Shown here: positions 8,079 to 55,640 of the stretch, one piece after another
How positions within the stretch are numbered: the stretch's first letter is position 1
How the letters are laid out: the number at the start of each line of letters is the position of its first letter
Origin: Pseudomonadota bacterium
GTDB lineage: Bacteria > Bdellovibrionota_B > Oligoflexia > Oligoflexales > RGVZ01
Assembly: GCA_041178085.1 (NCBI GenBank)
Contig: JBEGVZ010000043.1
Coordinates: 39,381 to 103,380 of the forward strand
DNA: 64,000 bases
Direction of reading: 5' to 3'
Notes under the pieces: generated by a model
What the model was told of the DNA's origin: nothing
What the model saw: only the letters and a program-made list of their open reading frames with translations
The model's database searches: none
Position numbers and translations under genes: made by a program

Positions 8079-9266
8079 TCAATGTGCAGATTTTCCAGAC
8101 GCAGCGCTTTGCCAAGAGGACGGGTGTTCAATCATGAAGCGCACAAGAACGTGACCCAGATGCGTGTCAAACACCTCTGGCGCAAGCCTTTGCTGCATAT
8201 CGCGGATCATGCTGCGGCCCGCTGGATCGAGTGACTCGAAGTATTTTTGCTTCAGCCTGTGGTACTGGCCACTACCGCCTGCTCGCATTTTTTTCAGCTC
8301 ATCCGCAGCCACGAGCCGCATTTTCGCGTGCAAGGTTCCATTCGCTTGTTCAGGGAGGGATGCTTCAACGCCAACATCGGACGCAATCACTGGCACGGAA
8401 AGCACAGGCGGGATAGTGGTCGGAGCCTGCGCACGCTGGGACTCGATCTCCCCGGGGATCTGCCCAGCCCGGGACGGATGCATGGTCCAAAGCACACGCA
8501 GGCACGGAGCGGAGCCACCCGCGCGCGGATGAAAAAGCACCGCACCATCATCGACAGAAGAAGTAATCACGCCGTGCCGGATGAGGCTTCGTCCAAGTCC
8601 AGCCAGGCATTTCAATACACCCGGCAGGGATTGTCCGGACTGCAAAGGAAGATCCATCTGCACGCAACCGTCCAGGCGTACCCAGTTGAATTGCCATCTG
8701 GCGGACGCTTCAAGCACCAGAAGCCAAGACCTTTCCGCTGCGCCCAGTTCCCGCCACAAGGCCGCGGGAAACGTCAGGGCCGGGTGTTCAACACCAGCGC
8801 CTCCAAGAAGGATGCGGTCCATTCCATTTCCGGCAACAAGCCGTGCGCAGTAGCCACTGCCAATTGACTGCGTCCGTTTGAGCAAAATCTCACCCGTGAA
8901 AAACGGCTGGACGGGCTGGGCTTCCAGCGAACCAGCGTGTCCCTCCCGAGACATGAGTCGCAGCCCGAACGCGTGCGCACAAAAGTCGCCTGCCACGTCC
9001 CGCAACTCATCCGGCAGGATGCTCCGCAAGGATGCAAGGTCCAGATGAAACTGCTCCGGACTTGATGGATCACGAGCCCAGGTCCCGATCACCCAGGGCA
9101 GCAATTGAAGCTCGGTTTGGGAAAGCCCCACAGGAGCAAGGCCGCAGGCATATGGGGACAGAATCTCAGCATGACCTGGCACGCATGCGAGGGACGCCGC
9201 AAGCCATGCGGGGATGACCACATTTCCCGGAGGAAACGGCAGATTTGGAACCTGGTTCTCGGACAT
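8079..9266 (-). CDS. hypothetical protein (395 aa)
   Basis: Long ORF in a co-oriented run; no recognised family. Confidence 0.65.
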   Translation of the reverse strand: MSENQVPNLPFPPGNVVIPAWLAASLACVPGHAEILSPYACGLAPVGLSQTELQLLPWVIGTWARDPSSPEQFHLDLASLRSILPDELRDVAGDFCAHAFGLRLMSREGHAGSLEAQPVQPFFTGEILLKRTQSIGSGYCARLVAGNGMDRILLGGAGVEHPALTFPAALWRELGAAERSWLLVLEASARWQFNWVRLDGCVQMDLPLQSGQSLPGVLKCLAGLGRSLIRHGVITSSVDDGAVLFHPRAGGSAPCLRVLWTMHPSRAGQIPGEIESQRAQAPTTIPPVLSVPVIASDVGVEASLPEQANGTLHAKMRLVAADELKKMRAGGSGQYHRLKQKYFESLDPAGRSMIRDMQQRLAPEVFDTHLGHVLVRFMIEHPSSWQSAASGKSAH

Positions 9267-22567: not shown

Positions 22568-23704
22568 GTGTCGATGGGAGTCAAAATGCACCAAGGAAAC
22601 GCGCTTCCAGTCAATGTTTCCCGTCGGTTACCTGCCCGGGTGGCATGGTTCCACCTGATCGCTGCCGCACTATTTCTGGCCCCTGCAGGTCAGCAGGCAC
22701 TGGCGACAGACCAAAAAGACGAAAACGGCGAAAGCGATACCCTGGTCAAAACAGCCCGTCAGGTACACCTTGGACAGATTCGGTTTGAAGACAGCTCTCA
22801 CGACTTCGGCAGGGTAAAGCGCGGCGAAAAGCTGACGCACCGCTTTGCTTTCCGCAACGAGGGCAAAGGACCACTCAAGGTCTACGGCGTCCACGCGGCC
22901 TGTGGATGTACTGCGGCAGAAGTCGCCTCGGGCAAAGAATACGCACCCCAGGAAACTGGTGCCATCGACGTCACGTTTGACACCACGGACTTTGATGGCA
23001 GCGTGGTCAAGACCATCACGGTCATGACCAACGAACGCCATGTGTCGGATCGCACCCTGTCGCTCCGTGCCACCGTGATCGGCGAATTTGAAGTGAACCC
23101 GCCATTGGCGGACTTTGGCGAAACCCTCATCCGGGATGGCGGCATGCAGCAGGTCGTGATCAAGCCCCAGCCCGGCAACAAGTTCGTGGTGGACAAAATC
23201 AAGTTCAATGCCGAGACCCTTGATGTTTCGTCGGTCGCAAAAGACGGCGGTTACGTCATCTCAATTCAGCTGAAGAAGGATATTCCGACCGGATTCCTGA
23301 AGGAAACCGTCTACGTCAGGAACAATTCCAAGAGTCTGCCAGAACTGCGCATTCCGGTCCGTGCGACCATCCGCGGCAACATCGAAATCGAGCCCAAGTA
23401 CATTGAGTTTGGCGCCATATCACCAAGCGACAAGAGCAGCCGCTCGATCACACTTAACGGCCTCAAGGAATTCGACATCAAGAATGTCCGGATGGACCTC
23501 AACCTCAATGGCGCCAAAGTGAGCGACTCGGCCGATCTGTTAAAGGTGAACCCGGTAAGCACGGACAAGCAAAAGAAATTGATTGCAGTCGACTTGCTAA
23601 ACAAGATCGACAAGGCCGGTAGCGTCCATGGCCGCCTCTTTATCGAGACTACTGATCCTCAGCAAAAAGAAATCCCGGTCGACTTTTACGCGTTCTTCCG
23701 GTGA
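22568..23704 (+). CDS. DUF1573 (Ig-like) domain secreted protein
   Basis: HDFG, F.F.N.GKGPL, ACGCT, K.ITV.TN; repeated DFG/EFG Ig modules. Confidence 0.85.
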   Translation: MSMGVKMHQGNALPVNVSRRLPARVAWFHLIAAALFLAPAGQQALATDQKDENGESDTLVKTARQVHLGQIRFEDSSHDFGRVKRGEKLTHRFAFRNEGKGPLKVYGVHAACGCTAAEVASGKEYAPQETGAIDVTFDTTDFDGSVVKTITVMTNERHVSDRTLSLRATVIGEFEVNPPLADFGETLIRDGGMQQVVIKPQPGNKFVVDKIKFNAETLDVSSVAKDGGYVISIQLKKDIPTGFLKETVYVRNNSKSLPELRIPVRATIRGNIEIEPKYIEFGAISPSDKSSRSITLNGLKEFDIKNVRMDLNLNGAKVSDSADLLKVNPVSTDKQKKLIAVDLLNKIDKAGSVHGRLFIETTDPQQKEIPVDFYAFFR

Positions 23705-27892: not shown

Positions 27893-29263
27893 TCAGAGCT
27901 GACCGACGAGCGCGGTTTTGTTGGCTCCGGTGATGAGCACGGACAGACATTGACCAGTGAGGGGTTCGCTGGATTCGACCCGAGTCAGGCGGAAATGCTC
28001 CGTCCGGCCGTAGTAAACGCCAGGAGTCTTCTTGCTCTCATAGAGGAAGAGAACATCGCGAGTACGACCAATCTCTGCCTCATTCTGACGAATTGTGATC
28101 GCGTCTTGAAGCGCATTCAAGCGGGCAAGGCGTTCTTCCATCACCGCCTCTGGCACCTGAACCGGCATCCTTGCAGCTGCCGTGCCTTTGCGTGGCGAAT
28201 ACTTGAACGCGTACACAAAACTGTACTGAACCTCTTCAACGAGCCTCAGGGTGTCTTCGAATTCAGCGTCAGTTTCTCCCGGAAACCCGACGATCAAATC
28301 CGTAGAAATCGCCATGTCGGGAACTGCCTCGCGCAACCAGCGGATGCGTTCGCGGTATTCTTCCACAGTCACCTTGCGACGCATGACTTCAAGGATACGG
28401 TCGTTCCCACTTTGCACAGGCAAGTGCATATAACGACCCATTTTGGGGTTCGCAGCGAAAAGTTCCGCCAGAGGTTTGGTGAAATCGTGGGGGTTGCTGG
28501 TAGTGAAACGAAGACGCTCCAACCCCGGCAAATCTGCGACCGCCGCAAGAAGCTCAACAAAGGGCCCGCGGTCCCCAGGTTCAAGGAGATCCTTGTCGAC
28601 CAGATCAAGGCCGTAGGAATTCACGTTCTGGCCCAGAAGCATGATTTCCCTGGCGCCACTGGCGAGCAGCTTGCGGCATTCGCCGAGGATGTCCTCTGGC
28701 ATGCGGGATATCTCCCGGCCCCGCGTAAACGGCACAATACAGAACGTACAGAAGTTGTTGCACCCCTGAATGATGTTCACAAAACGCGAAACTTCATTTT
28801 TGCCCGTGAGCGTTGGCGGGACCACATCCGGCGCAGGGTCTGCGGCAGGCGTATCTTTCGCATCGATTTCCGGACTTTTGAACCCGGTCGCCATGGATGG
28901 CGCGCCAGAATCCAGGCTGCGATTCAACAGGCTGGGCAATTCGTCAATCTTGCCTGGCCCCAGAAGCACATCAATTTGCGGTGCTTCGCGCAGCAGCTTT
29001 GCGCCTTCCGCCTGCGCCACACACCCCGCCACGGCGATTTTCACGCCGGGGCGCTGTTTCTTCATTTCGCGCAGGACGCCCAGGCGGCTGACCACTTTAT
29101 GTTTAGCTTTTTCGCGAATGTGGCACGTATTGAGCAGGAACAGGTCAGCTTCCGATTCGTCCTCAGTCAAAACGTAATTCATGCCATGCAGCAGGCTCAG
29201 CATCTTCTCGCTGTCCGCCACATTCATCTGGCAACCCCACGTTTCTACATGGACTTTTTTCAT
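27893..29263 (-). CDS. miaB: tRNA-2-methylthio-N6-dimethylallyladenosine synthase
   Basis: GCQMNVADSE, NTC, GCVAQ, CNNFCTFC, GQNVNSY, YSPRKGT, TRAM domain. Confidence 0.96.
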   Translation of the reverse strand: MKKVHVETWGCQMNVADSEKMLSLLHGMNYVLTEDESEADLFLLNTCHIREKAKHKVVSRLGVLREMKKQRPGVKIAVAGCVAQAEGAKLLREAPQIDVLLGPGKIDELPSLLNRSLDSGAPSMATGFKSPEIDAKDTPAADPAPDVVPPTLTGKNEVSRFVNIIQGCNNFCTFCIVPFTRGREISRMPEDILGECRKLLASGAREIMLLGQNVNSYGLDLVDKDLLEPGDRGPFVELLAAVADLPGLERLRFTTSNPHDFTKPLAELFAANPKMGRYMHLPVQSGNDRILEVMRRKVTVEEYRERIRWLREAVPDMAISTDLIVGFPGETDAEFEDTLRLVEEVQYSFVYAFKYSPRKGTAAARMPVQVPEAVMEERLARLNALQDAITIRQNEAEIGRTRDVLFLYESKKTPGVYYGRTEHFRLTRVESSEPLTGQCLSVLITGANKTALVGQL

Positions 29264-30849
29264 CGGCGATTCTTTTTCCTGGCGGCCTTTGCGGCCTTCC
29301 TCATCTTGCGCAGTTTGTCGCGGTCCACCTGGCGGGGAGCTGCCTCAGGAGCCCCTCCACCGAAGAGGTCGCCCATAGCACCAAAGCCCGGCATCCCGCC
29401 ACCTAAACCTGGGAAACCACCGCCCCCTCCACCGCCCATAGCACCCATACCGGCCTGTTTAGCGAGGTTACGAAGTTGGTTTAGCTGGCCAAGGGCCTTG
29501 CCGCCCGGGATCTTGCCGAGCAAGCCCATGCCCTGACCAAGCATGCCCATCATTTGGCGCATCTGTTTGAAACGCTTGATCAAGTCAGAAACTTCCTTGG
29601 ACTGGCGCCCGGACCCAAGGGCGACCCGCTTGACCCGGCTGTCGTTGAAGCAGCCAGGATCAAGGCGCTCCTGCTCGGTCATCGAATCGATCATGGCCTT
29701 GATTTTGACCAGTTCACGGTCATCCAGGTTGAGGTTTTTGGTGTCCAGACCGGGTACGTTGCCGAGCGGCAACTTGCCAAAAACATCTTTGAGCGACCCC
29801 ATCTTCTGGATGGTAGAGAGTTGCTCGTAAAAATCGCGAAAGTTGAATTGCCCCTTGAGCATCTTCATGGCTTCCGCCTCGCGGTCACCCGTCGAGACGC
29901 GGTCGAAGTCCTGCATCAGGCCAACGATATCGCCCATACCCAGGATCCGGCTGGCAAGACCCTCCGGCCGGAACTCTTCAAGCCGTTCAAGGTCCTCTCC
30001 CATTCCCAGGAACTTGATGGGCTTTCCTGTCACTTCCTTGATACTCAGGGCGGCACCACCGCGGGCATCGCCGTCAAGTTTGGTGATCACCACCCCATCG
30101 ATATTCAGGCGGTCGTTGAATACTTTGGCCGTTGCGACCGCGTCCTGACCCATCATCGCATCGCAAACGAACAAGATGTTGTCTGGACGCGTGGCGCGCT
30201 TGATATCTTCAAGCTCTTTCATCAAGGGCTCGTCGATCGCAAGGCGGCCAGCGGTGTCGAACATGATCACGTCTGCACCCTGACCAGCCGCCGCATCGAG
30301 CGCCTGACGGCAAATGTCGACCGGATTTGCACCCGCAGGAAGCGAGAACACTGGCACATCCAGCCGCTGACCAAGGACTTTCAACTGGTCAATGGCCGCG
30401 GGGCGATAAACGTCAGCCGCCACCAACATGGGCTTGCGTCCGGATTTCTGCAGAAAGCGTGCAACTTTTCCCGTCGTTGTCGTCTTGCCACTACCTTGCA
30501 AGCCGACCATCATGATCAGGGCTGGGCGCGATGACGGCAGGTTGAGTTGCGAGTCGACCGGGCCCATGAGGGCTTCAAGCTCTTGACGACAAATTTCAAC
30601 GAAGTGATCGCCGGGGCGGACTTTCAACCGGCTGTCGCCGGATCCGGCCTTGAGTTGCACCGATTTACCAAGGGCGCTGTCCTGGACGCGCTGCAGGAAC
30701 GACTTGACCACGCCATACTCGACATCCGCATCGAGCAAGCTCTGACGGACTGCGCCGATGGCATCCTTGAGGTTGTTTTCGGTTAGGGTCGAGACCCCTT
30801 TCAACTGGTCGCGAGCCTGCTTGAAGCCATTGGACAAAATTTCCAGCAT
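29260..30849 (-). CDS. ffh: signal recognition particle protein Ffh
   Basis: GLQGSGKTTT, DVYRPAA, DTAGR, TKLDGDARGGAALS, RILGMGD, M domain. Confidence 0.97.
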   Translation of the reverse strand: MLEILSNGFKQARDQLKGVSTLTENNLKDAIGAVRQSLLDADVEYGVVKSFLQRVQDSALGKSVQLKAGSGDSRLKVRPGDHFVEICRQELEALMGPVDSQLNLPSSRPALIMMVGLQGSGKTTTTGKVARFLQKSGRKPMLVAADVYRPAAIDQLKVLGQRLDVPVFSLPAGANPVDICRQALDAAAGQGADVIMFDTAGRLAIDEPLMKELEDIKRATRPDNILFVCDAMMGQDAVATAKVFNDRLNIDGVVITKLDGDARGGAALSIKEVTGKPIKFLGMGEDLERLEEFRPEGLASRILGMGDIVGLMQDFDRVSTGDREAEAMKMLKGQFNFRDFYEQLSTIQKMGSLKDVFGKLPLGNVPGLDTKNLNLDDRELVKIKAMIDSMTEQERLDPGCFNDSRVKRVALGSGRQSKEVSDLIKRFKQMRQMMGMLGQGMGLLGKIPGGKALGQLNQLRNLAKQAGMGAMGGGGGGGFPGLGGGMPGFGAMGDLFGGGAPEAAPRQVDRDKLRKMRKAAKAARKKNRR

Positions 30850-30899: not shown

Positions 30900-32543
30900 T
30901 CAGGGTCTGTCGCGGTTTTGCTGGGTGGCCGACGCCTCAGAAATGATGGGGCGCGGCCTGGGGGGGGTCCACTCAATTTTGCCCTCGGCGATCGGCGCCG
31001 CTGGCATGGCTGAATCCTCTGGAGACGAAGGGGCCTGCTGCAGGACCTGAACCGTGTAGGAATAGGTACCGGTCGGCAGGCGCAGGGTCTTGGTTTCGCC
31101 ATTGGTTACAAGGAATTCCGTGTCGCTGGTGATGCTTTCGGCGACATATTTCTGGGGTGACCAGTTAAGGTCGGATATGGTCCCGCTTCCCGGTCCCTCG
31201 CGCCCCGTGCACGACTCCGCCGGTGCTGCCAGCCCGAGTTCTTGGGCGACTAGAAGCCGCTCGTGGGAGCCATCAAACAGGGGATTCCAGCATGCGTAGC
31301 CAAGGACGGCCGCAGGGTCTGCCGCAACGTCTGACGCGACTCCTGGCGCTAAATCGGGCGGCTGCACGGAAGCCCTGCGACGGAGGGCTTCACGGCGGGC
31401 ATTCTGACGTTCCATCAGTAACGCCTGGGTGAACTTTGCCAACCCGAGAACGACATCCTCTTCCGGACGCAAGGTAACTAGAAGCGGCGAGCCGTTTGAC
31501 TCGGTCTGGGTAAAACTAACGGTCAGCGCACCGAGCTTGCTGGTGTTTTCAAATACCCGACGCAACGAATCCGCTTCGTTGGCGATCTTCGCCACGACGA
31601 TCGCGCCAATGGCCTTGCGAATTTCGTCAGGCCCTTCACCGCACAATGAGTCCACAATCCGCGGATCATCCAGCACAAGAGGCAACTCAGGCTTCAAAGA
31701 GCGCTTGATGATGACACAGGGTTTTTTCATGGCTTCCATCACGCTCGTGCCCGTCGAGACTTCCTGCAGCGCATCTGCCAGTGTGATGCCGATCGCGACG
31801 CGCCGGGCCAGCAAGTAAGGCTGCCGCGTCCAACCTGAAATCATCGTCTGCCGGGTTTGCTGCAATGACATTTCGGAAGTCATGGCGGATGGGGACGCAA
31901 AATCGCACTGCCACGCCAGCGTCTTGTCCCCAGGAGCATCCTTGGCCTGTTTTTCCGGAGAAACATCTGGAAAGGCCGCACGGCAATCCGGAGCGAACCC
32001 CGACAACCAGGACTTCAATGCGTCAGCAACCTCGGCATTCGCCTGCACACTGGGGGCCGGCCCCGATCCCGAGATATGCGCACAAGCCGACGTCATCCAG
32101 CCATCCGGCACGCCGGTCTGGGAAATGAATTCTGTCGACTCCTCGCCAACAAATCCGCGAACCAGAACCTTCATCCCATAACGGCTAACCGTAAAACGAA
32201 TCACCCGACGGCCAAGGAGCGTATCAAGGTCTATTTCCCAGCGGGACAAGAATGGGGTGGCCCCTCCCGTTTCAGCCGGAGACTGGCAGCTTGAAACCAT
32301 CAAGCGGGCAATCTCGTGCTTGCCAGACGCAGCGTCCGTGACAAAAGCAACGGGCTCGGGACGGAACCAGTCCTTGGTCACCTGTCTGCGCAGACTGCGA
32401 TCCTGCTCCGAGAGTTCGAGCGATTTTCTCTGCGACTGACCTGGAGTTGATTCGGAAGATTTCTGCTGCGTCGTCTTACATGCTGGCAGCCCAGCCATTG
32501 CAGCAAACGCCAGAATTTTCAGGGGAATCAGCGGCCTATTCAA
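30900..32543 (-). CDS. hypothetical Cys-containing lipoprotein
   Basis: Probable TTG start at 32543 with GGGAG upstream, overlapping the upstream stop; lipobox-like LPAC. Confidence 0.7.
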   Translation of the reverse strand: MNRPLIPLKILAFAAMAGLPACKTTQQKSSESTPGQSQRKSLELSEQDRSLRRQVTKDWFRPEPVAFVTDAASGKHEIARLMVSSCQSPAETGGATPFLSRWEIDLDTLLGRRVIRFTVSRYGMKVLVRGFVGEESTEFISQTGVPDGWMTSACAHISGSGPAPSVQANAEVADALKSWLSGFAPDCRAAFPDVSPEKQAKDAPGDKTLAWQCDFASPSAMTSEMSLQQTRQTMISGWTRQPYLLARRVAIGITLADALQEVSTGTSVMEAMKKPCVIIKRSLKPELPLVLDDPRIVDSLCGEGPDEIRKAIGAIVVAKIANEADSLRRVFENTSKLGALTVSFTQTESNGSPLLVTLRPEEDVVLGLAKFTQALLMERQNARREALRRRASVQPPDLAPGVASDVAADPAAVLGYACWNPLFDGSHERLLVAQELGLAAPAESCTGREGPGSGTISDLNWSPQKYVAESITSDTEFLVTNGETKTLRLPTGTYSYTVQVLQQAPSSPEDSAMPAAPIAEGKIEWTPPRPRPIISEASATQQNRDRP

Positions 32544-33024
32544 CCTCAACTCCCTGGACGGCGAGCTCGATGCGCTCATGGAATCCGCCAGAGGAGAGTG
32601 CGGCAGCTTCAACCGACCACGAAACCGGCTGGCATGACTTCAGAATGTAACGCGCAATTTCATCGCCATCGCGATTTTCCATCACGATGTTGATGTCCTT
32701 CAGGCCGGTGCGCTCGCGCATCGTGTTCTTGGCCCAAAGATACAGGGACGGATCGGTTACGAAATCGCGCTGCAACACCACGCGACGAACATAGCCATCC
32801 TCTGCTGCCCCTTCGACGCCATCTTCGATTCCAATGACACCGTCAAACAGGCCGTAGTCGGTCCCGTCAATCTCAACGTGAGTGCGTACAGCGTGGTTGG
32901 AAAAACCTGCGGGAAGTTCCGGGGAGCCTGCCACGTAGGCGAGCATTGCTGGCAAAACAAAAAAGATCCCAGCCCGGACTCTGCGAACGAGCGATGGGAG
33001 CTTTGAGCTATTGAAGACAGTCAT
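32536..33024 (-). CDS. phage tail tube-like protein (T4 gp19/Afp1-5 family) with N-terminal hydrophobic segment
   Basis: VEIDG...F..V.G, VVLQRDFVTDPSLYLW, KDINIVMENRDGDEIARY, QPVSW, ERIELAVQGVE. Confidence 0.72.
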   Translation of the reverse strand: MTVFNSSKLPSLVRRVRAGIFFVLPAMLAYVAGSPELPAGFSNHAVRTHVEIDGTDYGLFDGVIGIEDGVEGAAEDGYVRRVVLQRDFVTDPSLYLWAKNTMRERTGLKDINIVMENRDGDEIARYILKSCQPVSWSVEAAALSSGGFHERIELAVQGVEVE

Positions 33025-33147: not shown

Positions 33148-33543
33148 TCACAGCCCGGACAAATTTACGATCGCCTCAATTTCAACCCTCACATCGCGCG
33201 GCAGACGGGCCACTTCGACCGTGGCGCGCGCCGGGAATGGAGCCTCAAAGAAGGTTCCGTAGACTTCGTTGACCTTCTGAAAATCATCCATGCTTTTCAG
33301 GAAGATTGTTGTTTTGACAACTTGGCCCATCTTGGCGCCGGCCGCTTCGATGATGGCCCGAAGGTTTTTCAAGACCTGAACCGCTTGTTCCTCGACCCCG
33401 CCCCCGACCAGCTGGCCAGATGTCGGGTCAAGGGGGATTTGGCCAGAAACAAAAAGCATATTCCCGGCAACGACTGCCTGGGAGTATGGGCCGATCGCTG
33501 CTGGTGCCGCGCTGGTCTGGATCACTTTTTTCGTGGTGTTCAT
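33148..33543 (-). CDS. RidA/YjgF/UK114 reactive-intermediate deaminase
   Basis: APAAIGPYSQA, SGQIP, FPARATVEVARLP, VEIE. Confidence 0.95.
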   Translation of the reverse strand: MNTTKKVIQTSAAPAAIGPYSQAVVAGNMLFVSGQIPLDPTSGQLVGGGVEEQAVQVLKNLRAIIEAAGAKMGQVVKTTIFLKSMDDFQKVNEVYGTFFEAPFPARATVEVARLPRDVRVEIEAIVNLSGL

Positions 33544-34523
33544 GACTCACTCCTGACTGGGGTGGCTTGTGATTCTTCAAGTTCCGCAAACAGTGCAGGC
33601 AGAATACCGTCGCGAACCTGCGGCGGAAGTCCGTCCATGCCTGAAAGGTCCTCAAGACTGCCTCGTGCATCGGCAAAACGGTTGGCCGCAAGCTGAGCCT
33701 GGGCCAGGTGCAACTTGAGCTTCCAAGAAAGCGGCTTGCCCGGCACTGCGACATCAGCGCGCCAGATTGCCGCGGGGATCCGATCGTAGAGTCCACACTG
33801 TCCAAGCACGGCTGTATATTCGACCAAAAAACCCTCGGACGTTGTGCCGGCGGCATAAAAGTCCTCGAGCACGTTCAACTTGCGCTCAGGTTCGTCCGGG
33901 GCGACGAGATCCATCGCCAGAGACAGGCCAGCCCAGGAGTTTTTCTGGCGGGCAATCTGTTCGACCGTCTTGGCATGGCCGGGAACTTCTTGCTGCCTGA
34001 GCGTCCAGGCCAGAAGTTCCCATAAACCGAAATGGTTGGGATCGACATCGAGTCCGGAATCAATCCAGCGCCGCGCTTCGTCAAAGCGGGCATCGTAAGC
34101 CAGCAGCTGGGCCATGTTGACGTAGGGCGCTGTCTCTGCCGGAACCAACCGCTGCGCCTCGGAAAAAGCCTGTTCTGCAAGGACCAGACTACCCGCAAGC
34201 ATGGCGGCGTTACCAAGGTGGAATTGAGCGCGGAAATCTGCGGCTGGGAAAATTTCCCGGTGCGCCTCGTAGAGTTGCAAGGCCGCAACCGGCACGTCCA
34301 TCGTCACCAGCTCTTCAAGGATGTCAACAAGCTGGGAGCCATCCACGAGAGGATGGTCGGACGCATGGTCGATCAGCGCACGTGCAAAGGCCTCGACAGC
34401 CTCATGCGGGACTTTGCCTGCAAGTTCCCCGCGGTAGCCGTCGGACACACCGAGGTATTTCCTCAAGGCCGGGCCCATGGGAAAAGACCGAAAATCAAAA
34501 GCAGCAGAGAAACCGTTATTCAA
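33540..34523 (-). CDS. tetratricopeptide repeat protein
   Basis: TPR-like helical repeats; overlaps both aspS and ridA. Confidence 0.75.
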   Translation of the reverse strand: MNNGFSAAFDFRSFPMGPALRKYLGVSDGYRGELAGKVPHEAVEAFARALIDHASDHPLVDGSQLVDILEELVTMDVPVAALQLYEAHREIFPAADFRAQFHLGNAAMLAGSLVLAEQAFSEAQRLVPAETAPYVNMAQLLAYDARFDEARRWIDSGLDVDPNHFGLWELLAWTLRQQEVPGHAKTVEQIARQKNSWAGLSLAMDLVAPDEPERKLNVLEDFYAAGTTSEGFLVEYTAVLGQCGLYDRIPAAIWRADVAVPGKPLSWKLKLHLAQAQLAANRFADARGSLEDLSGMDGLPPQVRDGILPALFAELEESQATPVRSES

Positions 34524-36360
34524 GGCGATGAACCCTTATGTGCAAATCACGAAGCTGGTCGAGGGACACCTCACCGGGCGCGCCGGTCATCAGGCACGTA
34601 CCCTTCTGGGTCTTCGGGAAGACAATGACATCGCGGATTGCATCGCACCCTGTCAAGATCATCGTCAACCGGTCCAGGCCAAAGGCAATGCCTCCGTGGG
34701 GCGGCGCGCCAAATTTGAGGGCCTCAAGCAGAAAGCCAAACTTGGCCTCGGCCTCCGCATCACTCAGGCCGACCGTTGAAAATACCTGCTTCTGCACCAA
34801 CGGATCGTGAATCCTGACGGAACCACCAGCCACCTCATTGCCATTAAGGACGAGGTCATAAGCCGAAGCCTTGACGCGGGCCGGGTCGGTCGCAAGCAGC
34901 GGAATGTCCTCCGGTCGCGGTGAAGTAAACGGATGATGCTTGGCAATCCAACGGTTGTTGTCGGGATCTTTCTCCAAAAGCGGAAACCCAAGGACCCAAA
35001 GGAAGTTGAGCTGCGTCGGGTCGTACAGTTTAAGGCGAGCACCAAGGTTGTTGCGCAGCGCACCCAGCGATGCCTTCGTCTGGTCGTAAGAACCTGCGCC
35101 AAACAGGACAAGATCGCCCGCCTTCAAGGACAACTTGCTGTCAATCGCGTTGACCGTCTCGTCACTCAGGAACTTGGCCACTGGCGACTGCCACGAAGCT
35201 ACCCCGGATCCGTTTTGCTTCTTCGCCCACGCCAGGCCCTTGGCCCCGTATTGGCGGACAAACTCAGTCAGTTCGTCAATATCCTTGCGGCTGAATTCTT
35301 CCGCCCGCCCCGGCACGACGATTGCGTTGACAATTCCGCCTGTGCTGATGGCCTCGGCAAAAACCTTGAAACCGCTGGTAGCCACGACGCTGGACAAGTC
35401 ATGGAGCTTGAGTTCAAAGCGCGTGTCCGGCTTGTCGACGCCGTATGACTCCATCGCCTCGTCGTAACTCATACGCGGGAAGGACGGGATCTCCTTGCCA
35501 TCGAAAAAATCCGAAACAGCGGAGCGGATCACGCTCTCGAAGGTTTTGAGAATCGCTTCCTCGTCGACAAAAGACATCTCACAGTCGACCTGCGTGAATT
35601 CAGGCTGGCGGTCGGCACGAAGATCCTCATCCCGGAAGCACTTGACCACTTGGTAATAGCGGTCGAATCCAGACACCATCAGCACCTGTTTGAATAGCTG
35701 GGGGCTCTGCGGCAGTGCATAAAAATGCGAGGGGTGAATACGCGAGGGCACGAGAAATTCGCGCGCGCCTTCCGGCGTGGACTTGTAAAGAAATGGCGTT
35801 TCAATGTCGAGGAAACCATGCGCCTCAAGCGACTTGCGCATCGCCTTCACAAACTTGATGCGCTTGAGAATGTTGTCCCGCAGGCGCGGACGACGCAAAT
35901 CGAGGTAGCGGTACTTCAAACGCAAGGTTTCGCTGGATTCCGCTTCATCAGCGACGGGAAATGGCAAAACATCGCATTCATTGAGGATCCGCAGGTCGTT
36001 GACGAGAACTTCAATCGAACCCGTCCCCAGGTGCTTGTTCACCATTCCCTCAGGGCGTTTATTGACGACACCTTTGATGGCCAGAACGAATTCGTTGCGG
36101 ATCCCTGATGCGTGCTGAAGTATCTCCATGGGCGCGTGGGCAGGATCGACCACAACCTGGGTCAACCCGTGACGGTCACGCAAGTCGATAAAGATCAGCT
36201 GTCCATGATCACGCCGTCGATGCACCCAGCCCATCAGAATCACTTCCTTGCCGGCATGGGATGCGTTCAACTCGCCAAGGTTGTGGCTGCGCTGCCACCG
36301 CGAGGCGCCCGTACCAAGGCCTTGGCGGGTCGGGTTGCCGGTAGTGTTCTGGGTTGTCAT
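34516..36360 (-). CDS. aspS: aspartate--tRNA ligase
   Basis: GWVHRRRDHG, RLKYRYLDLRR, LPQSPQLFKQ, FRDEDLRADRQPEF, GGSVRIH, PPHGG. Confidence 0.98.
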   Translation of the reverse strand: MTTQNTTGNPTRQGLGTGASRWQRSHNLGELNASHAGKEVILMGWVHRRRDHGQLIFIDLRDRHGLTQVVVDPAHAPMEILQHASGIRNEFVLAIKGVVNKRPEGMVNKHLGTGSIEVLVNDLRILNECDVLPFPVADEAESSETLRLKYRYLDLRRPRLRDNILKRIKFVKAMRKSLEAHGFLDIETPFLYKSTPEGAREFLVPSRIHPSHFYALPQSPQLFKQVLMVSGFDRYYQVVKCFRDEDLRADRQPEFTQVDCEMSFVDEEAILKTFESVIRSAVSDFFDGKEIPSFPRMSYDEAMESYGVDKPDTRFELKLHDLSSVVATSGFKVFAEAISTGGIVNAIVVPGRAEEFSRKDIDELTEFVRQYGAKGLAWAKKQNGSGVASWQSPVAKFLSDETVNAIDSKLSLKAGDLVLFGAGSYDQTKASLGALRNNLGARLKLYDPTQLNFLWVLGFPLLEKDPDNNRWIAKHHPFTSPRPEDIPLLATDPARVKASAYDLVLNGNEVAGGSVRIHDPLVQKQVFSTVGLSDAEAEAKFGFLLEALKFGAPPHGGIAFGLDRLTMILTGCDAIRDVIVFPKTQKGTCLMTGAPGEVSLDQLRDLHIRVHRLE

Positions 36361-47905: not shown

Positions 47906-49543
47906 ATGCGCCCCGGCACACAGATCCTCGTGCTCCTTTTGAACCTGTGCGTCTTCGCACTGGCGGGATGCTTGAAGAGAACTTCGCCAAGCTCCGGGGG
48001 CTTGAAGTCGACCACTGAAACGATCTCACAAAAGTGCCAGGCAGATCCTTTCGAATGTTCCGCTTTCCAAATGATGGTCCGGAGCGGTTACATGACCAAC
48101 TGCGCAAAACTCTGGCAGGACACTGGCGCTGAAGTCTATGCATTTGATGAGTTCGACAATGTGCATCACAAAGTCCAGCCTGTCATGAAGGACACCAAAA
48201 CCAGATTGACCACAATCGGGCAATATGTCGACGACGCCAGGACTGCGCTCATGTCAGCAGAAAACGTCGACCAGATGATGACAAACATGGCGAGATCGAA
48301 TAGCGTCAAATTGAATTGGCGCGACATTCCCGTTGGTAGGCGGCCCACTATCATGGGCGGCTCCACGCCTGTTCCGGTAAAATTTTATGCACTCCGAGTC
48401 GATAATAAGCTTCTGAATAAAAAAGAATGGGTCATTTTCCGCACCTTCGTTCCCCCGGAGGTCAAGCGCTCCTTCAGATATTCCAGCGACATCCTGGATC
48501 TGGCCACGGAAGAGTTTTCCAGACAGTGCTATCCTGCGCGTCCGCACAGCGCCGACGATAGCGCTGCATCGATTTCCGAAGTCATCCGGACATTAAATGA
48601 TGCAGACCGTTACCGACGCCAGGCTGAAAATCTCGATGCCCTGTACAAGGGTATGGTCACCTTTGTTGAGGCTGCACCTGGTACGGGAGAAGTCGCAAAG
48701 ATTTACCGTGGATGCTACCTGAAGGAGTCCAGCTGCCTGCGAGCAGCTATTGTGGTAACCGCAAATGTGGCCACCTACGTTGTGCTTGCCCCCGCGACGA
48801 CTTCAGCGGCATTGGGCGCCAAAGGCTACTTGATGGTCACGACCATCGGGGCTGCCGCCAATGCGGCGGAGGGTGGAATTCAAACAACAGAAGCGATCCA
48901 GCAGGGACGAAATGGCCATTGGGGCCTGGCGGCGCTTCATGGCGCCGGCGCTATCCTTCGGTTCACTGCAGCCACAGGGATGGTTCTGGAAGCAACGAAA
49001 GCAGTCACTGAAATGGTGCCCAGCAAGGTTGGTGGCCAAATGCCTGCCCAGCAAGCCACCACTCCCGCAGTTACCGACACCACGATCCAGGATTTTTATC
49101 AGGCCGCGGCATCGTCTCCTGTTTTCAAAAAGAAACTATCCCTTGCAAATCTGCTCTCTGGCGGAAAAAAAGTGACGGTGGATGAGATCCTGCTCGAACT
49201 GCAGCAAAATGCAAAGTTCACGCGTATCGATAGTCTTGCCGGCGCAAGAGTAGACATCACAGATGCCGGGACCTTCGTATTCCAACACAGCGCTGATACC
49301 GGAATTTTTTCGCGCGCCACGGCCCATCACGAGCTTCTGCACTTGGCCCAGTTTCTGCGAAATCCAGCGCTCAAAGTGGAGGCCAACCAATTGTCATTCA
49401 TTGCGCGCCAGGCATACGAACCCATTCCAGCATTGATTGGATCACCGGAAATATTTGGTGCGCCCACCCTGATTGTTGCCGGGGAGGCTGTCTATCTAGC
49501 ATACCAATCTGCAGGCCTGATTTTTAAAGCACTCGATCGATGA
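47906..49543 (+). CDS. hypothetical lipoprotein with hydrophobic central region and C-terminal HExxH motif
   Basis: Lipobox LAGC; HHELLH near the C-terminus. Confidence 0.7.
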   Translation: MRPGTQILVLLLNLCVFALAGCLKRTSPSSGGLKSTTETISQKCQADPFECSAFQMMVRSGYMTNCAKLWQDTGAEVYAFDEFDNVHHKVQPVMKDTKTRLTTIGQYVDDARTALMSAENVDQMMTNMARSNSVKLNWRDIPVGRRPTIMGGSTPVPVKFYALRVDNKLLNKKEWVIFRTFVPPEVKRSFRYSSDILDLATEEFSRQCYPARPHSADDSAASISEVIRTLNDADRYRRQAENLDALYKGMVTFVEAAPGTGEVAKIYRGCYLKESSCLRAAIVVTANVATYVVLAPATTSAALGAKGYLMVTTIGAAANAAEGGIQTTEAIQQGRNGHWGLAALHGAGAILRFTAATGMVLEATKAVTEMVPSKVGGQMPAQQATTPAVTDTTIQDFYQAAASSPVFKKKLSLANLLSGGKKVTVDEILLELQQNAKFTRIDSLAGARVDITDAGTFVFQHSADTGIFSRATAHHELLHLAQFLRNPALKVEANQLSFIARQAYEPIPALIGSPEIFGAPTLIVAGEAVYLAYQSAGLIFKALDR

Positions 49544-50886: not shown

Positions 50887-51297
50887 TCATGGAGCTCCGC
50901 AATTCAACCATTCTCGGAAAAGCGCCCTCTCGGAGGGGGACACTGGAACAGACGGCGGCATGGAGCCATTCTCCGGCGCCGCGACACGTAGCATCACCAC
51001 ACGCTGGGTGAGGGCGTCAGACGCTGAATCGAAATTGACGCCTTCGGGAGCGCCAAGTCGGGCTGCACCGGTCAACGATGCCGAATGGCAGGAGGCACAG
51101 TATTTTCGGGTATATGCACGACCAAAATTGCCCCACGAAAGCGAAGTCCCATTGGGACATTCGAGGTTTACTGGCACTTTCACCGGCGTGTTGGAACCTG
51201 ACGCCTGGGGTTCAGGATCCTCAGGGCTCACTTTACGACCACAGTTCGTCGCAACCAGAGCGGCAAGAAAAAAAATCGAAAGAGCCGTGCGTTTCAT
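50887..51297 (-). CDS. c-type cytochrome lipoprotein
   Basis: Lipobox ATNC, CASCH, MPP distal ligand, W..CGAP. Confidence 0.85.
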   Translation of the reverse strand: MKRTALSIFFLAALVATNCGRKVSPEDPEPQASGSNTPVKVPVNLECPNGTSLSWGNFGRAYTRKYCASCHSASLTGAARLGAPEGVNFDSASDALTQRVVMLRVAAPENGSMPPSVPVSPSERALFREWLNCGAP

Positions 51298-52541
51298 CGT
51301 CCACCCTCAAGTATCCCGGAGATCGGCTGGGCCGACGTCCAACGCCGGTAATCGACACCACCCAGGACCAGCATTGCAGCCCAGGCGTTGGCTGGGGTAA
51401 CGCGAATCAAGTCACCCGTTGTGTAGCCGAAACGGGGATCAATCTTGACTCCGCGCCCATGATCGTCAAAGGCACCGACCTTCCCCATCTTGATCCCGTC
51501 GCCCCAGACCAGGATGCTGCCATAAGGCCAAGGATCTTTTCCGCTGCGTGAATTCAGCCATGGAGTCAGACCGGTATTGCCAGAGACCACGACGACAAGT
51601 TCAGATTGGATCCCGAGTGCGTAAGCATCCTGAACGATCTTGTCCAGTCCGCTAAAAAGAGACTGAAGCAAGGCCGACTGCCCGGTGAAGTGATTGGCCC
51701 TGGTGGCAAACTCCATCGATCCGCCCACTCTGATCATGGCGGCGAGGCTCTTGCCCTGGGCAAACATTCTGAGAGCCGCCCGTGCCTGGCTCACAAACAA
51801 TGGATCACCAGCGGAGTACCCGCCGCTCCATGCGCCAGGAATGCTCGCAGCAAAAACCTGCTGGAAGCGGAACTGACGGTCCATCACGCGGGCGTCCAAC
51901 TGGTCGGCGCTGCCGCTTCGCATCGTCACTCCAAGCGCCGTGAAGTCCTTGCGCAAGTCGCGGAAGATTCGGTCGGTGACCGACACCGGGAGGGTTGGGG
52001 AAGCGGGGCTTGTCGACAAGTATTGCGCAGGAACCCGGCCGATCAGAGATTCGTCCTCGACATCGCCTGACGCGTTCGTTCCTGGGAACGCCAAAACCGG
52101 CACGGGCCGTCCCTTGCCGATGTCCTGGGCATAAGCCGCCAGCCAGTTGCGGGGCTTCCTGTTTTTCAGGGACACAAGATTCGTATTCGATAATCCACGG
52201 GCAAAATCCCCGCCTGTCGCTGGATCGAATCCAATTCCGTTCAGCGCTGAAGTCTTCGCGCCCCATTGATCAAAAAAAGCATCGACCGCGGAACGGGCGG
52301 GATTCGATACATGAGAAAACCCTGACGCGGCAACACGGGCAGCACTCCCTGCTTCGACTGCGAACACTCCCGAAGCGCCTTTCCAATCCACAACCATCGA
52401 TGGATCAAAACCACCTTCGCAGATCAAGTGCAGAAAAACCTTCGGCCTTACTGCCAGGGATTGGGAGGCTGGCATCCAAAGAACCAACACGATCCACAAT
52501 GCAGCAATTTTTCCGATTTGATTTCGCATGAGACCTTGCAC
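51294..52541 (-). CDS. DUF1501-like exported protein
   Basis: GGFDP motif, TPWLN..GKDPWP, GAFDDHG; context next to cytochrome c and a DUF1588-like protein. Confidence 0.7.
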   Translation of the reverse strand: MQGLMRNQIGKIAALWIVLVLWMPASQSLAVRPKVFLHLICEGGFDPSMVVDWKGASGVFAVEAGSAARVAASGFSHVSNPARSAVDAFFDQWGAKTSALNGIGFDPATGGDFARGLSNTNLVSLKNRKPRNWLAAYAQDIGKGRPVPVLAFPGTNASGDVEDESLIGRVPAQYLSTSPASPTLPVSVTDRIFRDLRKDFTALGVTMRSGSADQLDARVMDRQFRFQQVFAASIPGAWSGGYSAGDPLFVSQARAALRMFAQGKSLAAMIRVGGSMEFATRANHFTGQSALLQSLFSGLDKIVQDAYALGIQSELVVVVSGNTGLTPWLNSRSGKDPWPYGSILVWGDGIKMGKVGAFDDHGRGVKIDPRFGYTTGDLIRVTPANAWAAMLVLGGVDYRRWTSAQPISGILEGGR

Positions 52542-52581: not shown

Positions 52582-55554
52582 TCAGTAAGCCAGGAAAAGT
52601 GGGCTCACAATCAAGGATGCCAGCATGGCGGTCAACCCGTCCAATTCAGGCTGAACAGATGAGGAAGCCGCGATTGCCTCCGCGTACAACGATTCAAGAT
52701 CGGACCGACGCGCGCTTGTCGGAGTGTTGCCTGTCCATTTTTCCCAGATCGTTGCCATTGCAGCTGCGCCCGAGGCTGCGTCGATCGTCGCAGGATCCGA
52801 AATCGACGAGAAAACGCCGCGCTGCCCCTGGGTCACTCCCGGTGCAAACTCTGCTGCGACAATCGCCGATGCTGCGCCCACCCCGTATTCCCAGACATCT
52901 CCCGCGTAGTCGATGCGCAGGGGGTAACTGGACGAACTGGATGAAAAACCGCTATTGACGGATGCTTTGGCCATCATTGAATCCAGAGCCGGCGCAGCCA
53001 GGGGGGCTTGTTGCCGGAGGGCCGTAAGAAGTTTGGCCGGATCTCGCCACCGTGTTTTTCGCACCGCGGCCTCGGCGGACGATACCTTGCTGTTCGAGAG
53101 TGTCGCACCAGCAGTGTTTGCTGGGGATTTGACGATCCCGCCAAACCATTCCGCAACAGAACCATCACCCGCCATTCCGTAGGCCGCAATAATGGACATG
53201 CGCGCGCCGTCCCGTTCGGGGTTAGCCGGTCTTTGAACAAGCGATTCCAGAACACGTTGCGAAAGGCAGGTTCGCAACGCCTCGTCGGCAAACAAGTTTG
53301 CCGAAAGTTCGCTCCATGAAGCCGTCGCAGAACCGAACCAATGCGCCGGGAAATTACCTCCGGCTGAGCCATCAAAACTCCTGTATGCAGCCATGCCGCC
53401 AGCGTTTGCCGTGCCAAGAAGCAACTTTCCTGCAGCCTGAACAGGCACGTGACACCCGCGACAGGATGAAGAGGACGTCTTCAGGGCAGCCAGACCCGAG
53501 GCCGAAAGAGAACTGGTATCCAGTGCAGAAAAATCATGGGCGTCCGCAGCTGACATGGATGTGCAGCGAAGCTGTTCAAGAATCCTCGCACCAGGACGAT
53601 CTTCTGGATGATCCGCGGCACCACCAAGAGTCCCGCCAGAGGCGACAAACGCCTGCGTCGACAGAATTCCCATCGCCGGCCTGCCATCCGCATAATTGAA
53701 ACCTACTTCACTCCGCCCAGGGAACGACGGCGCACCTGCTGTCTTCCCCCACAGCGTCACAACGGACGGATCGGCAACGGAGGAAGATCCCCGAAAAATT
53801 TCGTTCAAGTCGCGCTGGTCATCGCGCAGCAAGACCTCAAAGAACAAATTTGCCTCGGCGGCAATCATGGATTTCATGGCTGGGGTAAGCGTTGAGGAAA
53901 GCCCCGAATCCGTCAGGGCAAGATGATCAAGATCGGCCAGAGCATTGCCTCGAACGCCCATTGCCGCGGCCAGATACCGGGACGCCGCCTGGGGAAACCG
54001 CGGCGACTGCATGGCTATGTTGACCCCGGCTGCCGTTCCCGAGGCGGCGATGACAGCCTCAATGGCAGTCGATTCAAGGGAGTCATTCAGATCGAAAGCG
54101 AGGCGGCGAGCCAATGGCTTTGCACCCAGCACATCAAGGCTCGCAAAAGCAGGCGCATAGGGCGGCACAAGATCAGGATTCTTCGGCTTCTCCGTTATCG
54201 GGACTTCGCCCTTCCGCCCGCAGGATATGAGTGAGCCACCAAACACACCCGCCAGCGGCAAGAACATCAGCAGGAAAAGTCCGAGTTTGACCAGAGACCC
54301 TCGCGGCTTGGCATATTTCGGATCGATACGTTTTGGGGGAGTCTTGCCAAGCCCGTCTTTGGAACAAATCAGATAGCTGAAACCAGGTGGTGCCTTCTTG
54401 CCGCCGCGCCCCGCTGGAGCCGTCGGCTTTCCCACCACCACAGAAACATCGGCCCCAAGTGCGGGAGCGCGCCGGAACAACTTGCGTGCCAATTCAGGCG
54501 ACGCCATCACGAACAGGGCTGAATTCAACTTCGTGTGGGCAATCCCGGTCGCGGACTCAATCTGGGCGTACGCCACGGGCTTGCGCCAAGCACCCTCACT
54601 GAAGCACCAGTCGCGACGCGGTTGGTGTCCCGCCGACGGTTCGGCCAGCATCGGACACTCTGTAACACTTGGCGAACATGGATAAAGGCTGACCCACCCT
54701 TCACGACAAAGCGAGTCACGCAGCTCCATTGCCCCCCAGGCCATCTCATCTGTAGCGGGCTCGGCCAGCAACAACAATGCATCCTTGCTGCTACGCGCAT
54801 AGTCAACGAGCCGGTCAAAGACACGTTTTTTGGCTCGAGGATCCAGAACCAACTCGTTCCAGACGTAACCCAGGATACAGACATCCAGGGTTGCATTGCC
54901 TTTTCGTTCTGGCGTACGCGCCGCATGATCGGCCGTTGCCTGGTGGGATTCAAAAAGATCGAAATCAATCTGGTCAAGCATGCCGGGAACTGCGTCGACA
55001 TAAACTGATGGCGAGGCAGCTCTTGACGCAAAACTCTTCTTCACGCGCGCGATGCCTTCGGCTGCGATTGCCAGCAAGGAGTCACTTGCGTCGATCAAGT
55101 GGACGGAATTTCGCGCCAGCTGCAATTCCGACAACCAAACCTGGGACCATGCACCAGATCCGCACCCCAGGTCGAAGATCCGCTGGTGTTGGAAATCCGC
55201 TGCGAACAGATCCGCAAGCCGTTTGACTCCGGCACGCTGAACAAGTCGCCTCACCAGAAGCGTTGCCCTTGCAGCATTCGGCAAGTGAAAGCCGGTCAGG
55301 TAGGCTTCCGCATCGCGCGGGTCTGCCAGCAGCTCGGCCGTGATCTGGTCCCGCCGCGAGGTGAAAATCCTCCAAAGCTCCTTGAAACGGGTCTGATTGC
55401 GGCGCATCCGGGCCTCATCCCCCACCCCCGCCAAATCCCGCCACGCCGCCAAAACAGGTGGCGGGATGTCGACGCTACCGCCACCAACCGACCTGCGCGA
55501 AATGGCAACATCCCGTTTTTTATCAATATTTCGGTTTTTTTGAGGTTTCGTCAT
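52582..55554 (-). CDS. fusion: Rsm22/METTL17-like SAM methyltransferase + TM/lipobox + DUF1588-like CxxCH domain
   Basis: AYL..F..PN, DLGCGSG, EPA, YPC.....CP, WCF, LIC; then a hydrophobic stretch ending LISC; RRLAFDL, GILSTQAF, CRGCH. Confidence 0.75.
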   Translation of the reverse strand: MTKPQKNRNIDKKRDVAISRRSVGGGSVDIPPPVLAAWRDLAGVGDEARMRRNQTRFKELWRIFTSRRDQITAELLADPRDAEAYLTGFHLPNAARATLLVRRLVQRAGVKRLADLFAADFQHQRIFDLGCGSGAWSQVWLSELQLARNSVHLIDASDSLLAIAAEGIARVKKSFASRAASPSVYVDAVPGMLDQIDFDLFESHQATADHAARTPERKGNATLDVCILGYVWNELVLDPRAKKRVFDRLVDYARSSKDALLLLAEPATDEMAWGAMELRDSLCREGWVSLYPCSPSVTECPMLAEPSAGHQPRRDWCFSEGAWRKPVAYAQIESATGIAHTKLNSALFVMASPELARKLFRRAPALGADVSVVVGKPTAPAGRGGKKAPPGFSYLICSKDGLGKTPPKRIDPKYAKPRGSLVKLGLFLLMFLPLAGVFGGSLISCGRKGEVPITEKPKNPDLVPPYAPAFASLDVLGAKPLARRLAFDLNDSLESTAIEAVIAASGTAAGVNIAMQSPRFPQAASRYLAAAMGVRGNALADLDHLALTDSGLSSTLTPAMKSMIAAEANLFFEVLLRDDQRDLNEIFRGSSSVADPSVVTLWGKTAGAPSFPGRSEVGFNYADGRPAMGILSTQAFVASGGTLGGAADHPEDRPGARILEQLRCTSMSAADAHDFSALDTSSLSASGLAALKTSSSSCRGCHVPVQAAGKLLLGTANAGGMAAYRSFDGSAGGNFPAHWFGSATASWSELSANLFADEALRTCLSQRVLESLVQRPANPERDGARMSIIAAYGMAGDGSVAEWFGGIVKSPANTAGATLSNSKVSSAEAAVRKTRWRDPAKLLTALRQQAPLAAPALDSMMAKASVNSGFSSSSSSYPLRIDYAGDVWEYGVGAASAIVAAEFAPGVTQGQRGVFSSISDPATIDAASGAAAMATIWEKWTGNTPTSARRSDLESLYAEAIAASSSVQPELDGLTAMLASLIVSPLFLAY

Positions 55555-55640
55555 TGCTGGACCTGGACCGCCGTACATGCTAACAGGTTGGATTACCTGT
55601 AGGTTTTGAGTTTGCGTACCCCAAGCTTATCAAAATTCAT

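Follow-up and report, generated by a model that had tools for sequence, protein, structure and literature searches.

A tube-fold protein with a predicted export signal and an overlapping lipoprotein gene: a possibly new envelope module of the Oligoflexales

Introduction

Contig JBEGVZ010000043.1 of the Pseudomonadota bacterium assembly GCA_041178085.1 (class Oligoflexia, order Oligoflexales) was analysed over 64,000 nucleotides, from position 39,381 to 103,380. This stretch is called the window here, and coordinates follow its own numbering. It carries a gene for a phage-tail tube-fold protein (32536..33024, minus strand) which overlaps the gene of a predicted lipoprotein (30900..32579, minus strand). 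The tube gene is a vertically inherited core gene of the order under purifying selection, not a remnant. Its product belongs to the tube fold family but does not classify with the extracellular contractile injection systems (eCIS), type VI secretion systems (T6SS) or prophages.

In the reading preferred here, a former injection-system tube gene became a fixed core gene of the order, having been recruited by the lipoprotein family in the order's ancestor. The two proteins would be made together through their overlapping frames. The tube protein would then be exported to the periplasm and cut, closing into a single Hcp-like ring unable to stack. The lipoprotein would tether this ring to the outer membrane through a conserved surface (FVTDPSLYLWA), binding the outer helix face on which a sheath would otherwise lie. 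The ring could then serve an envelope structure as its collar or carrier, chiefly in cells that are motile and free-living. For the whole chain, that of a co-made, exported, non-stacking ring held by an outer-membrane lipoprotein as an envelope collar or carrier, we estimate a probability of roughly 0.42.

A tube-fold core gene

The tube gene encodes 162 residues of the gp19/eCIS inner-tube fold. Its open reading frame (ORF) scores 32.7 bits against the PF06841 profile, above the gathering cut-off of 28.2, and below the cut-offs of TIGR02241 and CIS5. A preliminary description of the window had recognised a tail-tube motif pattern at 32536-33024; every motif that it quoted is present in the ORF, and the gp19 assignment made there holds at profile level. 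An AlphaFold2 model built from 81 homologues (mean predicted local distance difference test score 86) consists of a beta-sandwich with a flanking helix, of the tube/Hcp type. Its best Foldseek match is AlgoCIS 7aeb_Y (E 4e-7), and the structural Z reaches 11.8 for the Bacteroides Hcp5 7yw0, 11.3 for the PVC tube 6j0b and 11.2 for the third match. Co-variation among 267 sequences recovers in-chain contacts, for example L84-L154 (z 9.7), in agreement with this fold. The tube profile found nothing significant among the sequences of solved structures, and a search of PHROGs returned no match. One family-specific motif, FVTDPSLYLWA (residues 88-98; 32731..32763, minus strand), is made of invariant or near-invariant alignment columns and runs into the flanking helix (residues 93-104 in the model); this region may be the surface that binds the partner. 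An assembly or frameshift artefact was considered and rejected, as four public runs contain no indel in the parts that they cover, the gene junction included.

A family profile search places the tube family in 90 of the 95 genomes of the order (57 of the 58 high-quality ones), always at a single locus, with the tube appearing as two adjacent pieces in two of the 90. Named records of the family are mostly from Oligoflexales and include Oligoflexus tunisiensis, which carries the pair (L062). Outside the order, one of 36 genomes of the class gave a weak match, to an ordinary tube in a full eCIS locus. This complete-looking locus from a sister-family genome (L080:932-11645) holds a sheath, two tubes, a CIS_tube-LysM protein and baseplate J. 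No relative of the tube family was found in viral contigs. Trees of the tube, the lipoprotein and Ffh, built from the 29 loci with all three, show no conflict between splits supported at 0.9. The ratio of nonsynonymous to synonymous substitution rates (dN/dS), estimated in four clades at dS of 1-3 with saturated pairs dropped, lies at 0.05-0.10 in the mature tube; the corresponding range in the lipoprotein is 0.10-0.23.

The host genome, 96% complete, contains one PF06841 gene. It gave no match for a sheath, and none for baseplate J (PF04865), the GPD hub (PF05954), the base_V spike (PF04717) or PAAR (PF05488), for which positive controls matched. Hcp (PF05638), TssC (PF05943) and VgrG-type domains were likewise absent from the matches, and there was none to CIS_tube, although here the positive control also failed to match. 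Among 30 further long ORFs of the window, none belongs to a phage-tail family at E 1e-5. The preliminary description had found no injection-machine genes in the 64 kb; for sheath, baseplate and spike this absence extends to the whole genome.

These results bear on whether the gene might be a decaying eCIS or prophage remnant, or might serve a sheath encoded elsewhere. The family does derive from eCIS-type tubes, and 12 of the 95 genomes of the order have a sheath gene (PF04984; eleven genomes score above the cut-off), with none in the other 83. Against a remnant stand the intact frames, the low dN/dS, the congruent trees and the presence of the gene in nearly every genome. The phage neighbours, patchy spread and decay expected of a prophage or tailocin remnant were not found, the neighbours being housekeeping genes, nor do the homologues sit in eCIS or prophage loci. 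A distant sheath would in addition be cytoplasmic, and the export signal described below would separate the tube from it. Both explanations deserve almost no credence.

The partner lipoprotein and its overlapping start

The two genes share 44 nucleotides (32536..32579, minus strand). Within them, the ATG of the lipoprotein is formed from tube codons His149-Glu150, and a second candidate start, TTG, lies at 32541-32543. The lipoprotein directly follows the tube in 54 of 58 loci; three of the others end at a contig edge and one (L075) continues with murD. Residue 149 of the tube may be His, Asn or Tyr. In 50 of 57 loci the codon for it has T in third position, compared with 51% of such codons in neighbouring genes. 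A T-ending codon 149 and the next codon together give an ATG in the lipoprotein frame, 44 nucleotides before the tube stop. The seven exceptions comprise two loci with TTG at -7, one with TTG at -28, three in which a separated partner has its own ATG, and one contig end. The overlapping frame is free of stop codons in 54 of 57 loci, where 39 would be expected from synonymous recoding. Related genomes are not independent, so these counts are patterns and not p-values.

The host locus has both starts, ATG at 32579 (559 residues) and TTG at 32543 (547 residues). The TTG start proposed in the preliminary description is plausible within the genus; across the order, however, the conserved start is the ATG 44 nucleotides inside the tube gene. 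A Shine-Dalgarno role for the codons of Gly146-Gly147 was considered and is not claimed, given a weak enrichment (GGT or GGA at Gly146 in 34 of 57 loci against a background of 48%). The pair also stays together where flanking genes change, for instance in L040, L069, L074, L076 and L092. The overlap would couple translation of the two genes, giving matched amounts of their products.

Of the 95 genomes of the order, 83 have the partner. Its lipobox Cys lies at 32478-32480, and the protein contains eight further Cys. The lipobox Cys is kept in 55 of 57 partners, in 54 of which the residue before it is G, S or A, and seven other Cys are kept in 56-57 of the 57. Lipidation is accordingly predicted from this pattern. 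The structural model (predicted template modelling score 0.82) combines an alpha/beta domain with a helical bundle and a beta-sandwich. The protein matches no Pfam family, and a fold search of PDB, VIA and viral libraries with the whole chain gave no clear match, though single domains may have a known fold. The best Z was 8.8, on the helical bundle, with about 6 for CBM41/CBM20-type sandwiches; an atlas search returned low scores. Comparison with TssJ gave weak Foldseek rows (E 0.11-0.84) that cover one beta-sandwich of the 559-residue protein.

A distant homologue of the partner occurs, as a single locus, in all 33 genomes of a sister family in the same class (f19, which we take to be Silvanigrellaceae). 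The two align by hhalign at 96.7% over 251 columns. The homologue is a membrane-anchored protein of about 570-700 residues without a known family (L081:6168-8093, L082:511-2451, L105-L116), often starting with a membrane helix instead of a lipobox. Its longer N-terminal region is DUF3108/DUF6134-like (atlas scores 0.90-0.92), which is a lead. In 14 of its loci, ridA lies nearby in 8 and a lone flgF-type rod gene follows in 5. Because this homologue exists without a nearby tube, the lipoprotein family is likely the older component of the pair. The notion of a split gene, with the sister-family protein as its fused form, was rejected, since the N-terminal region of that protein scores 0.4% against the tube by hhalign.

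A predicted export signal

Residues 1-39 of the tube protein (32908..33024, minus strand) form a predicted Sec signal peptide, with a predicted signal-peptidase-I cut after L-P-A39. A basic n-region and a hydrophobic core were scored in 57 of 58 orthologous loci, and the 58th visibly has the same N-terminus; the basic and hydrophobic N-terminus noted in the preliminary description is hence a trait of the family. A wrong start codon, with the true start downstream of the hydrophobic segment, was rejected on the same family-wide conservation. Two alignments, which share members, have Ala39 at position -1 in every orthologue (81 of 81 and 47 of 47), and position -3 is occupied throughout by S, L, I or V. 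The distance from the predicted cut to I52, in the first strand, is 13 residues in 81 of 81 and 46 of 47. An invariant Ala at -1 with such a residue at -3, at a fixed distance, is the pattern of signal peptidase I, and cleavage is predicted from it. The mature protein is net negative in 44 of 47 orthologues, like tube lumens. Export through Sec with cleavage after Ala39 is very likely on the residue pattern.

The N-terminal helix could instead be an uncleaved inner-membrane anchor, the tube and the outer-membrane lipoprotein then forming an envelope-spanning bridge. The model does show a 23-residue helix at residues 11-33, and the membrane helix that often opens the sister-family homologue would suit such an arrangement. 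The invariant cleavage-site residues at their fixed distance argue against it, and an uncleaved anchor appears highly improbable.

Stacking loop, with the proposed ring and partner binding

The beta2-beta3 stacking loop of the tube protein (residues 66-81; 32782..32829, minus strand) is the least conserved part of the family and has no Y.EG...PG motif. The preliminary description had noticed that it looked shortened. Over 40 family members the median loop has 17 residues, where four other tube groups have medians of 28.5-29.5, and the loop is 12-13 residues shorter than in the ordinary eCIS tube of L080. According to a review, the long loop is essential for axial polymerisation of tubes, and in phage YSD1 the loop restrains ring formation and self-assembly depends on the N-terminus (PMC9022992). 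Stacking of the Oligoflexales protein into tubes is unlikely on this comparison. Closure into an Hcp-like ring is slightly favoured, and direct binding between tube and lipoprotein is probable, if only by a modest degree.

Several observations weigh against the preferred reading. The correlation between tube and lipoprotein distances drops to 0.25 after the Ffh distance is removed. Seven of the 90 tube-bearing genomes lack a detected partner, and in L075, where murD follows the tube, the tube is still under selection (dN/dS 0.13-0.15). In the 14 sister-family loci no tube-like ORF was found near the homologue at E 0.5. Tube and lipoprotein are thus not inseparable. As for the ring, co-variation across its presumed interface reaches z 2.5 compared with 2.2 for a random region (267 sequences). 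In phage P74-26, assembly was lost when the loop was deleted, and contacts within the ring also involve this loop (PMC10034513). A short loop may therefore mean no ring at all. Of the domesticated, exported tube protein put forward in the preliminary description, the tube fold, the independence from an injection locus, the conserved export-type signal, the short loop and the coupling to a lipoprotein stand, but ring co-variation does not rise above noise. Lastly, 7 of the 16 genomes of the order without FliF keep both genes, so the link with motility is loose.

The genomes that have one gene without the other are also what would be expected if the two shared an operon and acted separately, the tube being a stand-alone periplasmic ring or binding protein. 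Solitary signal-bearing tubes occur elsewhere (L117, L118, L140), and overlaps are common in the same gene run (aspS-TPR-ridA, ffh-miaB). Separate action does not sit well with a pair that holds together while its flanking genes change and whose 44-nucleotide overlap stays in register across the order, and we regard it as distinctly improbable.

The main rival is that the exported tube is a monomeric accessory subunit, docking one-to-one on the lipoprotein and replacing the larger N-terminal domain of the sister-family homologue. That homologue, at about 620-650 residues with its longer DUF3108/DUF6134-like N-terminus and no tube nearby, would fit, as would the one-to-one translational coupling, the loss of assembly on loop deletion and the unseen ring co-variation. 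Set against these points, the sister N-terminal region is without profile similarity to the tube, and selection persists on the L075 tube although no partner follows it. A monomeric subunit is unlikely by our estimate, though to be taken seriously.

Clues to function

The partner is missing in 9 of the 16 genomes without FliF and in 3 of the other 79, and the tube in 4 of the 16 and 1 of the 79; related genomes among these are not independent. Loss of the pair there may reflect general reduction, several such genomes being small or incomplete. A strictly flagellar role was rejected, since both genes survive in some genomes without FliF and are still under selection in one family of this kind (L074 against L076: dN/dS 0.11 for the tube, 0.17 for the partner). 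The type IV pilus profile PilM_2 was uninformative: it matches 95 of 95 genomes and also related actin-fold proteins. A role of the pair in predation has no direct support.

The association with FliF also counts in favour of another reading, in which the exported protein builds a tube or filament on the cell surface without a sheath; the lipoprotein would anchor this structure, which would serve for contact with prey or surfaces. The tube fold, the conserved sheet strands and the fixed mature N-terminus are compatible with a filament, and other lineages have signal-bearing tubes with a full loop. The loop that would stack it axially is 12 residues short and variable, however, the genome has no hub, spike or cap gene, and the Tad secretin domain (PF13629) is present in only 10 of the 95 genomes of the order. 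Such a filament is quite unlikely.

Divergent forms occur in two FliF-less genomes. In one, the tube has 244 residues, includes a long insertion and lacks a detected partner (L087:5505-6239); the other has a divergent pair whose partner is shortened to 382 residues and has no evident lipobox (L088:5519-7151). In the host genome itself, the FliF match is a frame of only 110 residues (E 1e-7) on contig C93 near 29644, where an assembly break or a broken gene is possible; seven flagellin-like genes and rod genes are present.

Comparison with known systems

The closest relatives by fold are the eCIS tube and initiator proteins (PVC 6j0b/6j0n, Afp 6rao/6rap, AlgoCIS 7adz/7aeb), with Foldseek E of 4e-7 to 1e-4 and Z of 10.5-11.3. 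The sequence VEIDG..YG.F..I.GL is shared too, with 95% by hhalign to the eCIS tube of L080. The Oligoflexales protein differs in its predicted export signal, its shorter loop and its core-gene distribution, and it is not accompanied by a sheath, baseplate, spike or cap. By contrast, eCIS are assembled in the cytoplasm and released by lysis (PMC8894135).

Hcp/TssD of the T6SS (7yw0, 6bdc, 8gra) is likewise alike in fold; the best Z, 11.8, has a root-mean-square deviation of 2.2 over 98 residues and falls on a compact Hcp. Hcp offers a precedent for free hexameric rings that carry cargo, and it is not known to have a signal peptide. Unlike a T6SS component, the tube protein does not match PF05638, and its genome is without TssC, PAAR and a VgrG-type domain.

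Another example of PF06841 tubes in a predatory lineage comes from marine Myxococcota, where highly expressed gp19 genes in eCIS loci have been linked to hunting (PMC11937823). A sheath gene is next to them in each eCIS cluster, and the portion of that paper available mentions neither a signal peptide nor an Oligoflexales tube.

Tube domains behind an export-type N-terminus are also found in other lineages. A profile search of 1.84 billion representatives gave 247 proteins at E 0.001, with the caveat that the signal columns of the profile favour signal-bearing proteins. Among the 150 listed of these 247, a count by eye gives about 28 that differ from the Oligoflexales type and still have export-type N-termini, mostly with a full loop. 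In the other-lineage set P0222-P0286 the median loop length is 29. Some are fused to further domains, namely DUF5667 with Kazal (P0250, P0266, P0280) and Ig/DUF4214 (P0281), and two have tandem tube domains (P0222, P0286). For a subset, 80 metagenome loci were fetched. A sheath lies beside a signal-less tube in 47 of them, whereas the four with a signal-bearing tube (L117:1294-1815, L118:7001-7402, L122, L140) have no sheath within 1-9 kb. The partner lipoprotein is absent from all 80. These other-lineage proteins therefore resemble the Oligoflexales tube in their N-termini and in lacking a sheath in the four loci, and differ from it in their full loop, their domain fusions in some cases and the missing lipoprotein. 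In a FastTree phylogeny with weak support, the Oligoflexales tubes form one long-branched clade, and the other signal-bearing tubes are scattered among ordinary ones. Solitary signal-less tubes of eCIS type occur as well (L150, L170, L192, L147, L179), with no sheath in the roughly 13-14 kb fetched. A literature search whose coverage excluded most subscription papers and supplements turned up no description of a sheath-less tube with a signal, or of the present pair.

Gene neighbourhood

The pair sits in a run of housekeeping genes on the minus strand. Upstream lie ridA (33148-33543), a gene for a tetratricopeptide repeat (TPR) protein (33540-34523) and aspS (34516-36360); downstream lie ffh (29260-30849) and miaB (27893-29263). 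The order aspS-TPR-ridA-tube-lipoprotein-ffh-miaB had been given correctly in the preliminary description. Across the 58 orthologous loci, the ridA cluster is present in 49, TPR in 42, aspS in 26, the ffh cluster in 31 and miaB in 29. A scan for promoters and terminators at the locus stayed at chance level.

A gene for a DUF1573 Ig-like protein (22568-23704, plus strand in the window) is convergent to miaB in 23 of the 58 loci and is followed by two small conserved genes without known family. In the window, Crp-like and ABC1-kinase genes stand between it and miaB. Five ORFs of the window (395-998 residues) have no Pfam family at E 1e-5: 47906-49543, 51294-52541, 52582-55578, 5521-6948 and 8079-9266.

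Implications

Phage-tail tube proteins are otherwise known as parts of injection devices assembled in the cytoplasm. If the preferred reading is true, an exported, sheath-free core tube would be a case of this fold re-used for ordinary envelope biology across a whole order. New here are the conserved start inside the tube gene, the sister homologue without a nearby tube and the loose association with loss of the flagellum. A more specific proposal is possible but rather doubtful. In it, an exported ring clamped by a class-specific disulfide-rich lipoprotein of undescribed fold makes a new conduit or collar in the periplasm, with which cells would touch prey or move on surfaces; this would be the fixed end-point of a wider, repeated trend of gp19 domains acquiring export signals and parting from injection machines. 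The scattered signal-bearing tubes of other lineages suggest that a PF06841 match does not in every case point to an injection system or a prophage. The partner, for its part, resembles a marker gene for most of the class and has no fold match. Together, the tube protein and the lipoprotein are possibly a new envelope module, and they provide two concrete, testable proteins from a little-studied lineage with cultured members such as Oligoflexus tunisiensis.

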